Source of the DNA: an uncultured delta proteobacterium
GTDB taxonomy: Bacteria > Myxococcota_A > Polyangia > Fen-1088
Assembly (NCBI GenBank): GCA_963737265.1
Contig: CAVTRY010000016.1
Span: 192,001-256,000, forward strand
Direction: 5' to 3'
Length of the DNA stretch: 64,000 bases
The notes under the pieces are model-generated. The model did not search any database, was not told the origin of the DNA, and saw only the letters and a list, made by a program, of their open reading frames with translations. This document shows positions 35,995 through 39,053 of the stretch, piece after piece; position 1 is the first letter of the stretch; every line of letters begins with the position of its first letter. A program made the translations under genes and the position numbers.

Positions 35995-36705
35995 ATGTCC
36001 GAAGGCGGTGGATTCTTCAAGCGACTTTCGAACCTGCTGAGCGGCTTCATGAGCCTGTGGATCTCCGACGTGGAGAAGGAGCATCCGGAGATCGCCTACG
36101 AAAACGCCATCAACGCCATGGTGGAGAAATACGCCAGGCTCAAGCGCGCCACCGCCGCCATCATCCGCCGCCGCGACGAAGTCAACGAGCGCTACACGAA
36201 CCAGGCCAAAGAGCTGGCCGAGGTCACGTCGGATCTGGACGTCGCGGTGCAAACCGCCAAGGACGATCTCGCCCTCATTCTCATCCAGAAAAAGAACCAG
36301 CTGGAAAAGGAAGTCGCCGATCTCAAGACCGACCTCGAAACCGCCGGCACGGACGCAGGCAGCGCCAAGGCTTCGCTGTTGCAGGTACAGGCCGAGATTA
36401 AGAAGTTGCAGGCCGAGAAGGACAACATGCTGGCTAAGATGGAAAGCGCCAAGGCGCGCATCCGCATTCAGGAACAGCTGGACGGCCTGAGCGTGGATGC
36501 CGAGGTCAAGGCCCTCGAAAACGTGCGCGGCCACATCAAGAACACCATCGCCGAGGCCAACCTCGGCAAGGAGCTGTCCGAGTCGACGCTCGATCAGAAG
36601 CTCAAGGCCCTGCGCGCCCAGACCGGCGACGTGACCGCGCGCAGCCAGCTTGACGAGATGAAAGCCAAGATGGCGGCGAAAAAAGCCGCGGTCAAGACTC
36701 TTTGA
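35995..36705 (+). CDS. PspA/IM30 (bacterial ESCRT-III) family protein
   Basis: [22 protein letters not shown] amphipathic helix; [20 protein letters not shown]; ~236 aa coiled coil. Confidence 0.85.
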
Positions 36706-36743
36706 TTTCTTAAAGACCCCGCTTGAAGTCGCAGGAGCCGCGC

Positions 36744-38579
36744 ATGCACCCAGCTTGGGCCGAAGAACTTCGACAACGTTACCGGCGCGGCGAGGCCAGC
36801 CAGTTCATCCTGCACGGCAATGTCTTCGATGTCGTTGCCTGGGACGGCAAGCTCATTCCGCTCGGCACCTATCTGGCCGAGAACCTGCTCGGCGAAACCA
36901 AGGACATCGTGGCGGTCTTCAATCTCGCCAGCGGCGGCACCTTGGTTCGCCGCAAGGCCGACCTGGGCGGATTCGAGGATCTGGTGGTGCAGCGCCAGCC
37001 GAGCAAGTTTCTGCCCGCCATGGAGCGCATCCTCAAGACGCGCACCAAGGTCGCCTTGGTGGTCGAGTACGCCGAGACGCTGGCCCCGGCCGCCGACGCC
37101 GCCATGATGAGCGAGGAAGATCGCACCGCGGTCGTGACCCTGCACCGCTGGTCGCTTTCGCCCGAGATCGCCGACTCGGACAACGTGGTGTTGCTGCTGG
37201 CGGAAAACCTGTCCGAGCTTCATCCCAAGCTGGTGTCCAATCCACGCATCGCCACCGTGCGCATCCCCATGCCCGACGAGGCCACCCGCCGCACCGTCGT
37301 GGATCTAGTCATGCCGGGCGCCGACGCCGCGTATGCCGCACGACTGGCCAACGTCACCGCGGGACTGCGCGCGGTGCAGATCCAGACCATCTTGCAACCC
37401 CCGCCAGCGGGCGCCGAGGACGGCGAAGAAGATCGCTTCAAGTTCATCCACGGCCTGCTGGGAGCCACGGACGCCGCCGTGCCCAGGGCGCGCAAGCTGG
37501 CCGCCATCACCAAGGGCATGGGCCGCGACGAGATCCGCGTGGTGGTGGCGCCCGACGCCGCCCAGGGAACGCCCGACGACGTCGCCAAGCGCGAACGCGA
37601 CGAAATCGACAGAATCATCACCCGGCGCAAACGCGAGATCATCGAGCGCGAATGCTACGGACTTATCGAATTCGTCGAATCGAGCCACGACTTTCGCGTG
37701 GTGGGCGGTATCGAGGGCGTGAAAACCGAGCTCGTGCGCATCGCCAAGGCCATTCGCGAAGGCCACACCGAGCGCGTGCCCATGGGCATTTTGTTCACCG
37801 GCCCCATGGGCGCGGGCAAGACCTTCGTGGCCGAGGCCTTCGCCAAGGAATCCGGGCTGACCACCATCAAGCTCAAGAGCTTCAGGTCGAAATGGGTCGG
37901 CGCCACCGAGGCGAATCTCGAACGCATCTTGCAAGTGATCCAGGCCATCGGCCAGGTGGTAGTCATCATCGACGAAGGCGACCGCTCGTTCGGCAACCAG
38001 AGCGACGGCGAGGGCGATGGTGGAACCTCGTCTCGGGTCATCGCGCGCCTCAAGGAGTTCATGTCGGACACCAGCAACCGTGGCCGCATCCTCTTCATCT
38101 TGATGACTAACCGGCCCGACAAGCTAGACGTGGACATCAAACGCGCCGGCCGCCTCGACCGCAAGGTGCCGCTGCTGTACGCCCAGACCGCCGAGGAAGT
38201 CGAAGCCGTGCTGCTGGCCCAGGTCCGCAAGCACAAGCTGACCTGGGATGTGACCTTTCCCGCGGATCGTATCGAGATTTCGCAACCCATGCTTGGACTT
38301 TCCAACGCCGACTTCGAGGCCATCACGCTGCTGGCCGCGGAATACGCCGCTGGACCCGAGATGGATCTCGTCGTCCGCATCGGCAAAGTCCACATGGTGC
38401 AAGCCATGGCGGACTACCTGCCCTCGCGCGACGGCAAGATGCTCGAATACATGGAGCTCTTGGCCGTGTTCGAGGCGTCCAATCGCCAGATGCTTCCCAA
38501 GAAATACCAAAACATGACTGCCCAGGAATTGCAGGCGCGCCTTGATGTCTTGCGCCTGGAATGCGGACAGCGGCGATGA
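36744..38579 (+). CDS. Classic-clade AAA ATPase with a degenerate N-terminal AAA-like domain
   Basis: Walker A GPMGAGKT; pore loop SKWVG; Walker B IIDEGD; sensor 1 MTNRPD; Arg finger RAGRLD. Confidence 0.9.
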
Positions 38580-38594
38580 CCAAGGAGACGAGCC

Positions 38595-39053
38595 ATGGAA
38601 TTTTTCCCCGAGATCCCCATTAGCGATCAGCAGGCCCAAGCCATTGCCCGCGGCCTTTACACCCTAGCCGCCGTCGACGGCGTGCACGAACGCGAAGCAG
38701 CCCTCATCGCCAACTTCTACGGCACCACGGCCGGCGGCGAGGCGCACCCTATGACCAGCCTGGCCGAGATCGAGCGGCTCGGACCGCTTTCGCCCGCGGA
38801 GCTGGCGGCCGCCTTGGCCGGCGACGACCTGCGCCAGCTGTTCGTCAAAGCGGCGCTGCTGCTCGCCTATATCGACGGCACAGTGACCGCCTCCGAACGC
38901 GCCCAGATTGCGGCGTACAGTGCCGCCCTCGGCGTTTCGGCGGATCGGCAAGCGGCCCTCGAGGAATCCGTGCGCGACCACCTGATGCAGCCCCTATCCC
39001 GCCTGGACAACAGCGAGGAAGTGGGCAAAGTCGCCAAACAGCTCGGGCGGTAG
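38595..39053 (+). CDS. TerB-like protein
   Basis: LAAVDG.HERE and LAYIDG.VTASERAQI..ALGV duplicated TerB motifs; AAGGAG RBS. Confidence 0.75.
   Translation: MEFFPEIPISDQQAQAIARGLYTLAAVDGVHEREAALIANFYGTTAGGEAHPMTSLAEIERLGPLSPAELAAALAGDDLRQLFVKAALLLAYIDGTVTASERAQIAAYSAALGVSADRQAALEESVRDHLMQPLSRLDNSEEVGKVAKQLGR

Follow-up and report, generated by a model that had tools for sequence, protein, structure and literature searches.

How bacteria disassemble and reuse the polymers formed by their ESCRT-III proteins, PspA and Vipp1, is an open question, and a locus of an uncultured delta proteobacterium (contig CAVTRY010000016.1, positions 192,001 to 256,000) raises it in a concrete form. Within this stretch of 64 kb (~63% GC), hereafter called the window, pspA is followed by a gene encoding an AAA+ ATPase and by a gene encoding a TerB-like protein. 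Could the ATPase be the motor that takes PspA polymers apart? Analyzing the trio and 80 related loci, we found that the ATPase carries two AAA domains, a degenerate first one and an intact second one, and that its gene is accompanied by pspA in two phyla. We see about an even chance that this protein acts as a motor that uses ATP to extract coiled-coil membrane proteins whose genes lie just upstream of its own, serving PspA polymer turnover by a Vps4-like action of separate origin; in the compact gene arrangement found in the window, PspA is the prime candidate client.

The three genes are arranged head to tail on the + strand. pspA (35995-36705, 236 aa) starts with the ATG at 35995 and carries AAGGAG 7 nt 5' of its start, the ATPase gene (36744-38579, 611 aa) starts with the ATG at 36744 preceded by AGGAG, and the TerB-like gene (38595-39053, 152 aa) starts with the ATG at 38595 preceded by AAGGAG. 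The open reading frames (ORFs), their translations and the junction sequences leave 38 nt between pspA and the AAA gene and 15 nt between the AAA and TerB-like genes, as an earlier note on this DNA had read them. All three genes show the codon bias of real genes, their GC content at third codon positions (GC3) being 0.79-0.84 vs 0.38-0.46 at second positions (GC2), and we take ATG 36744 to be the correct AAA start because P3 and W5 are nearly invariant among homologues. Scans for sigma70 promoters and terminators returned nothing beyond shuffled controls. PspF is a sigma54 enhancer-binding AAA+ protein that is bound and inhibited by PspA; no sigma54 -24/-12 site was found 5' of pspA at <=2 mismatches, and therefore regulation of the PspF type does not account for the ATPase.

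The first gene product is, judged by its domain profile, a member of the PspA/IM30 (bacterial ESCRT-III) family. It matches Pfam PspA_IM30 (PF04012) with E 2.2e-18 and 67.1 bits (cut-off 33.9) over residues 7-224, that is, over profile positions 2-216 of 220 and hence the full length. The proteobacterial PspA equivalog was rejected (TIGR02977, 37.5 bits vs a cut-off of 242.95). The window protein is 61-82% identical to its orthologues in the related loci, and the mean column identity of this PspA clade reaches 74% over Myxococcota and Acidobacteriota, the C-terminal tail also being conserved; conservation this unusually high fits a protein with many constrained contacts. The third product is a cytoplasmic protein with two DG...E repeats whose match to Pfam TerB (PF05099) stays under the cut-off (22.3 vs 24.4 bits). 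All 14 of its 14 orthologues match Pfam TerB at E <= 0.1 (best 1.6e-9), and the profile of the family matches PDB 2ou3, a COG3793 TerB protein, with E 2.5e-5.

The ATPase consists of a degenerate domain, D1 (~residues 15-300), and an intact one, D2 (~320-611). Its sole match to Pfam AAA (PF00004) lies in D2, at residues 349-475 (E 1.2e-26), and the translation of D2 contains a Walker A motif (GPMGAGKT), a Walker B motif (VVIIDEGD), the pore loop SKWVG, a sensor-1 motif (TNRPD) and the arginine fingers in KRAGRLD. In an alignment of 36 family members, which share 28-58% identity with the window ATPase, K359, D410, E411, G386, R467 and R470 are invariant. The aromatic pore loop, which we take to be like that of Vps4, and the intact second region of homology were already pointed out in the earlier note, which read these motifs correctly. 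The N-terminal 309 residues have no Pfam match at E <= 1, and D1 lacks a GK[ST] P-loop and reads YAE where Walker B has DE. Even so, hhalign matches the D1 profile to that of D2 with a probability of 89.8% (E 1.8e-6) over 131 columns, which extend between the Walker B strand and the lid. An AlphaFold2 model of the ATPase (predicted local distance difference test, pLDDT, 91.2; predicted TM score, pTM, 0.86) adopts an alpha/beta AAA-like fold from ~residue 15 on, and the top Foldseek matches of this model, Rix7, p97, Cdc48 and AFG2, align with it over 593-620 columns (E ~1e-22; query-normalized TM score, TMq, 0.51-0.58); several of the matches are segregases solved with substrate in the pore. 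The blank Pfam result, the alignment of D1 with D2 and the tandem fold all agree with the degenerate first AAA-like domain that the earlier note had described. Since the fold alignment covers D1 and D2 at full length, we concluded that the ATPase is a type II classic AAA+ protein whose D1 is dead and which lacks a separate N domain. The first ring can neither bind ATP nor hydrolyse it, and its likely role is that of a scaffold or docking ring. Among NCBIfam profiles, which are only a proxy for phylogenetic placement, the ATPase scores 70.6 bits with CDC48, 60.3 with PAN, 57.9 with FtsH and 42.3 with CdvC, and the 60 PDB sequence matches listed are two-domain p97/Cdc48 variants whose scores sum two stretches.

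The family to which the ATPase belongs is large. A word-indexed search retrieved 3778 proteins at E <= 1e-10 among 8000 candidates scored, and 837 representatives of 50%-identity clusters match the ATPase at E <= 1e-30. Its closest relatives are metagenome proteins, 94-95% identical, and the closest named ones come from Polyangia, so that the window belongs to a Polyangia-like myxobacterium; ten distant representatives, from Latescibacterota, Bacteroidia and a Cognaticolwellia metagenome-assembled genome, bear generic cluster names only. Apart from inteins, longer members of the family carry AAA and lid domains only, with no MIT, PspA or TerB fusion among them. The inteins interrupt the active AAA domain of two distant relatives, P0222 and P0262, and carry LAGLIDADG domains.

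To what extent is the gene linked to pspA? Scanning genomes with a 14-member ATPase alignment yielded 599 pattern matches, 589 of which were confirmed as relatives. The loci described here are the best 80 of at least 589 relatives; they come from Myxococcota and Acidobacteriota, their ATPases are 55-73% identical to that of the window, and their ORFs were searched both with the window proteins and with profiles. pspA lies upstream of the ATPase gene and on its strand in 58 of the 80 loci, which amounts to 58 of the 60 with enough flank and includes both phyla. Another 19 loci show no pspA within an upstream flank of less than 5.7 kb and are uninformative, except that L078 (5.6 kb) is probably a true absence; two (L041 and L080) have the full flank without pspA, and one (L034) has no callable AAA ORF. 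Among these closest relatives the ATPase thus does not usually occur without pspA, the finding that, according to the earlier note, would have told against its proposal.

The gene directly 5' of the AAA gene is of one of two kinds. Fifteen of the 80 loci have pspA there (14, and L012, in which the AAA ORF is split), and 55 have a gene for a protein that combines a membrane hairpin with a long coiled coil (TMcc), whose family profile finds matches in 58 loci. Eight loci have nothing 5' of the AAA gene, as the contig ends there, and a single one (L041) has neither pspA nor TMcc at this place, so that in 70 of the 71 loci having upstream sequence the immediate neighbour ahead of the AAA gene is one or the other. 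Abutting junctions ahead of the AAA gene are frequent (for instance 7991/7992 in L014 and 7982/7983 in L040). In the dominant order, a gene for a 195-aa coiled-coil protein (cc195) is followed by pspA, by a gene for an inner-membrane-anchored solute-binding protein of the NMT1/SsuA type joined to an OmpA domain (SBPOmpA), by genes for an ABC permease and an ABC ATPase, by TMcc and by the AAA gene, to which Myxococcota add the TerB-like gene. The latter lies directly 3' of the AAA gene in 23 of the 80 loci, essentially in Myxococcota only, and is accessory. Homologues of cc195 were detected by phmmer in 33 loci, in every one directly upstream of pspA; in the compact loci L001, L017, L019, L047 and L075 (E 1e-54 to 2e-68) they diverge from it, and long operons have both genes on one strand. 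A FastTree tree of 72 AAA sequences, from which eight short or uncalled ones of the 80 loci were left out, unites the Acidobacteriota in a single clade and groups the window with L001-L004, both with support 100, and the compact pspA-AAA-terB order clusters in Myxococcota lineages. In the Pyrinomonadaceae loci L010 and L012, PspA and AAA are followed by a second type of solute-binding OmpA protein (SBPOmpA2), the permease, the ABC ATPase and, in part, TMcc, and thus the parts of the module were reshuffled in Acidobacteriota too. Seven or eight genes make up this conserved envelope module, of which the trio is the compact version, that of Myxococcota. The pspA-AAA-terB operon of the earlier note stands as far as the adjacency of the genes goes, and has to be widened, since the trio is only part of this module and its TerB-like gene is accessory. 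As a separate observation, the AAA frame is split or starts late in L012 (7956-9838), L036 (8542-9831) and L044 (8674-9834), which may reflect frameshift, assembly error or a pseudogene.

Starting from the observed domain identities, motif integrity, tandem fold and conserved synteny, we infer that the ATPase would form a hexamer in which the D1 ring would act as a scaffold or docking ring and the D2 ring, with its conserved aromatic pore loop, would be catalytic. The hexamer would grip a terminal segment of a coiled-coil polymer subunit and thread it through the D2 pore, by which the subunit would be pulled from a membrane-bound PspA (ESCRT-III-type) assembly. Such extraction, with PspA rather than TMcc as the client and with disassembly as its direction, would bring about ATP-driven turnover of the PspA polymer. 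Several lines of evidence argue for this mechanism: the catalytic and pore residues of D2 are invariant in 36 diverse members and D1 is degenerate; the fold matches the substrate-threading segregases Rix7, p97/Cdc48 and AFG2; pspA accompanies the ATPase gene in 58 of 60 informative loci of two phyla; pspA or TMcc is its immediate upstream neighbour in 70 of 71 loci, with frequent abutting junctions; the PspA clade is unusually conserved; no sigma54 site that would point to the PspF-type route lies 5' of pspA; PspA rods are held to need factors for disassembly and re-assembly (PMC11746142); and, as laid out in parts of PMC11237479, the same interpretation was reached independently from other genomes.

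Several points weigh against it. Binding and disassembly of PspA by the ATPase are steps that we infer. In the 55 loci with the TMcc-AAA arrangement pspA lies ~4.3 kb upstream, and it is TMcc, not pspA, that is translationally coupled to the AAA gene. pspA is absent from the full flanks of L041 and L080 and from the 5.6 kb upstream of the AAA gene in L078. The linkage figures describe the closest 80 of at least 589 relatives, the wider family having 837 representatives. By Pfam, the ATPase has no MIT-like recognition domain. Furthermore, PspA is known to inhibit PspF, so adjacency of pspA and the AAA gene could reflect regulation instead of a motor and its substrate. Co-folding of the full ATPase with the full PspA gave a score of 0.00 vs a mark of 0.32 in a run without controls, a result that speaks neither for nor against binding. 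A broader claim can be put forward only as a tentative and rather doubtful one, namely that in bacteria of at least two phyla a motor for ESCRT-III recycling has evolved independently. It would be a Cdc48-like tandem AAA+ protein with a dead first ring, devoted to a polymer of the PspA type and to a coiled-coil partner anchored in the membrane, and wired to a peptidoglycan-tethered ABC transporter.

The position of TMcc directly 5' of the AAA gene in 55 loci, with frequent overlap, means that PspA is not the sole candidate client. The ATPase might instead extract or remodel TMcc, in the manner of Cdc48/Msp1 or by recycling of the NSF/SNARE kind, PspA being merely a co-expressed effector that stabilises the membrane. 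TMcc is membrane-inserted and all-helical, and L080 and L078 retain TMcc-AAA with pspA undetected, as this explanation would have it. In 15 loci, the window included, it is however pspA and not TMcc that lies directly 5' of the AAA gene, TMcc being distant or off the flank. The TMcc copy of the window, TMcc274 (44939-45763, + strand; AlphaFold2 model all-helical, pLDDT 86.3), lies 6 kb off. It is a divergent homologue, sharing just 22-29% identity (E 1e-8 to 3e-27) with the products of the ORFs immediately ahead of the AAA gene in the 55 loci. Matches of the TMcc profile to SNAP-25 (E 0.8-2) are insignificant and were set aside as coiled-coil noise. We regard TMcc as the true client as unlikely. 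The earlier note had the ATPase dedicated to PspA; the linkage in 58 of 60 informative loci retains PspA as a candidate client, and the 55 loci in which TMcc takes the adjacent place remove the exclusiveness.

TMcc corresponds to the protein annotated 'SIG+TM+Snf7' in the published PspA operons of PMC11237479, and the assignment to Snf7 was not reproduced here. None of 24 members of the TMcc family has a Pfam Snf7 match at E <= 1, hhalign of the TMcc and PspA profiles gave a probability of 0.2%, and a Foldseek search of the TMcc model against PDB returned no match at E <= 0.001 and no ESCRT-III protein among the matches listed. An identity of TMcc as Snf7/ESCRT-III thus finds no support in Pfam, hhalign, a PDB profile search or Foldseek, although helical hairpins are hard to match and distant kinship is possible. 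An Atlas lead from TMcc to the Rv2743c (PspM) family reached 0.87, under the 0.9 level, and is a lead only.

PspA could also be a regulator or adaptor of the ATPase, as it is of PspF, inhibiting it until membrane stress recruits PspA to the membrane, in which case the ATPase would act on other envelope clients such as the transporter or damaged membrane proteins. Binding and inhibition of the AAA+ domain of PspF by PspA provide the precedent, which a review names as well, and the transporter and peptidoglycan-binding parts of the module could be such clients. The ATPase, however, is a threading motor of the classic clade with no DNA-binding or sigma54-interaction features, and no alternative client for it was identified; regulation by PspA appears quite unlikely. 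That the module serves anti-phage defence, or that the linkage is functionally meaningless, is very improbable: the AAA domain has weak PADLOC matches to IetA (E 3.2e-10) and TRIP13 and an NCBIfam match to IteA (2.3e-7), and Ter clusters, in which TerB domains are found, have been linked to resistance to phages and stress, but the IetA, TRIP13 and IteA matches do not reach beyond the generic AAA core, PADLOC has no match for PspA, TerB-like, TMcc and cc195, the synteny is kept over two phyla in a chromosomal operon with transporter genes, and the block was not carried as a composite transposon, as the target duplications described below indicate.

Turnover of PspA by the tandem ATPase thus being the reading we prefer, we return to the window, where all parts of the module are present, scattered and rearranged, beside two copies of an insertion sequence (IS). 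Upstream of the trio, on the + strand, SBPOmpA1 (31207-32748) encodes a protein in which a solute-binding domain of the NMT1/SsuA type is joined, at the C-terminus, by an OmpA peptidoglycan-binding domain (Pfam OmpA 1.7e-18 and NMT1_2 9.3e-10; NCBIfam SsuA_fam 6.5e-28). It is 33-38% identical (E down to 3e-109) to the product of the gene after pspA in long operons and is the orthologue of that second gene. Directly 3' of it, in the position of the ABC permease of the long operon, lies a gene for a PafA-like alkaline phosphatase (32770-34491, +; NCBIfam 1.7e-126, under the cut-off). On the - strand, cc195 (35332-35919; GC3 0.79) encodes the 195-aa coiled-coil protein, a conserved partner, and is divergent from pspA; the protein belongs to no known family, Pfam giving only coiled-coil noise and Atlas only unnamed clusters. 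It adjoins TM231 (34556-35251, -), a small membrane protein of no family.

Downstream of the trio, three genes on the - strand encode the ABC ATPase, of a type-2 transporter set (41367-42155; Pfam ABC_tran 8.8e-23), the ABC permease (42176-43033; BPD_transp_1 1.3e-8) and SBPOmpA2 (43036-44859), a protein of 607 aa that is anchored in the membrane at its N-terminus, ends in an OmpA domain (Pfam OmpA 1.4e-16) and has a solute-binding region weakly resembling NMT1 (NMT1_2 0.041). Comparison with loci L010, L012, L017, L019, L047 and L080 revealed 48-61% identity of the ABC ATPase to the system-adjacent ABC ATPases, 34-66% identity of the permease to the permeases and 37-65% identity of SBPOmpA2 to its orthologues. 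TMcc274 is divergent from these three genes and is followed directly by sm94 (45781-46065, +), another small membrane protein of no family. For TM231 and sm94, the 80 loci contain no homologue at E <= 1e-3. Past the module by 0.7 kb, after a HIT-family gene, lies a gene for an ATPase of the type III secretion/flagellar type (46480-47892, -; ATP-synt_ab 2.2e-87, T3SS_ATPase_C 5.8e-27).

Both IS copies belong to the ISKra4 family and carry their transposase gene on the - strand. Copy 1 occupies 29131-30912; copy 2 (39273-41054; NCBIfam transpos_ISKra4 5e-52), which is context only, lies between the TerB-like and the transporter genes, and the two bracket ~8.4 kb containing the trio. They differ from each other at 6 positions, and each encodes a 576-aa transposase and has ~24-bp terminal inverted repeats and its own target duplication, that of copy 2 being the 9-bp direct duplication AGCTCCGAC. 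The separate duplications show two independent insertions and rule out that a composite transposon brought in the block. Copy 2 splits a small + strand ORF (MKSVNVHDAKTRYSRLL...) into 39183-39271 and 41055-41105; its N-terminus presumably resembles type II antitoxins, and the 29-aa piece is without a Pfam match. A third transposase gene (21964-23280, +; DDE_Tnp_1, E 1.3e-9) adds to a region rich in mobile elements. A further gene (23325-25358, -) encodes a 677-aa protein with a transporter region of the MFS type and a C-terminal spermine/spermidine-synthase domain; fusions of a transporter with spermine synthase are tied to other PspA operons in a section of PMC11237479.

For the question of how PspA and Vipp1 polymers are disassembled and reused, this operon family offers a concrete candidate that can be purified, and given that a purifiable ATPase co-occurs with a PspA clade, the question is directly testable by a rod-disassembly assay. 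If the broader, rather doubtful claim made above is true, the tandem ATPase would be the missing bacterial counterpart of Vps4. Since Vps4 is thought to have derived from Cdc48 through loss of one ATPase domain, as PMC10936438 puts it, the tandem ATPase would then be a living parallel to that transition. What the present analysis adds is the linkage count, the tandem Cdc48-like nature of the motor, the partners cc195 and TerB-like, which are unnamed in PMC11237479 as far as it was searched, and the warning that TMcc may be the real client or a second one.

How does the system compare with known ones? Two ATPases are functionally tied to a PspA/Vipp1 oligomer elsewhere, namely PspF, which is tied to PspA, and the Hsp70 machine HSP70B-CDJ2-CGE1, which works with VIPP1 in the chloroplast. 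The window ATPase is like them in this tie, and unlike it neither of them is a tandem classic AAA threading motor. In the literature, a 2025 review (PMC7619361) has a Vps4-like ATPase seemingly absent from bacteria, PMC10936438 has vps4 together with ESCRT-III systems restricted to archaea as well as eukaryotes, and PMC11746142 holds that PspA rods need factors for disassembly and re-assembly, invoking chaperones as yet unnamed or, in the case of re-assembly, PspF.

With Vps4 and CdvC the ATPase shares the classic-clade AAA+ domain, the aromatic pore loop, the intact second region of homology, the adjacent gene from the ESCRT-III superfamily as well as the proposed action, extraction of subunits from a polymer. 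It differs from them in having two AAA cassettes instead of one and a partner in the PspA branch instead of the Snf7 branch. No MIT domain (PF04212) was detected in the whole ATPase at E <= 0.01 or in residues 1-309 at E <= 1, Vps4_C (PF09336) has no match in it, and the CdvC equivalog of NCBIfam, which matches nothing but the AAA core, scores 42.3 bits vs a cut-off of 650. Together with the two cassettes and the fold matches to Rix7, p97/Cdc48 and AFG2, these results lead us to reject membership in the Vps4 family, and the Vps4-like ATPase of the earlier note does not hold as a family assignment, the protein being a tandem type II AAA without MIT or Vps4_C. The nearer likeness is to Cdc48/p97/VAT, Rix7 and AFG2, which share the tandem D1-D2 fold over the whole length and provide the best matches among those listed in PDB and in NCBIfam. 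From Cdc48/p97/VAT the ATPase differs in having no N-terminal double-psi-barrel (CDC48_N and CDC48_2 are unmatched in Pfam) and a D1 without P-loop and Walker B glutamate, and membership in the Cdc48 family was rejected as well (TIGR01243, 70.6 bits vs a cut-off of 802.65).

The closest counterpart has already been published from comparative genomics, both the pairing of PspA with an inactive-AAA/AAA protein and its Vps4-like reading. PMC11237479 (mSystems 2024; preprint 2020) describes, in the passages searched, PspA alongside a protein in which the N-terminal of two AAA+ domains is inactive, likens the pair to Snf7/Vps4 and adds that there are longer operons, which also encode an ABC ATPase, a permease, a PBPB+OmpA protein and a transmembrane 'Snf7' protein. 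The term TerB occurs neither in its main text nor in its supplement, the searched passages and the supplement do not name the cc195 partner, and the supplement makes no mention of Myxococcota. We found no experimental study of the PspA-linked tandem ATPase in a literature search whose coverage falls short of all journals. Unlike the published examples, the window has the compact order pspA-AAA-terB-like, with transporter genes that are inverted and separated by an IS. Like them, it combines in one polypeptide two AAA+ domains, the N-terminal one inactive, and joins to this the linkage to PspA, the same parts of the longer operon and the analogy to Vps4, and the window system belongs to this predicted, published kind.

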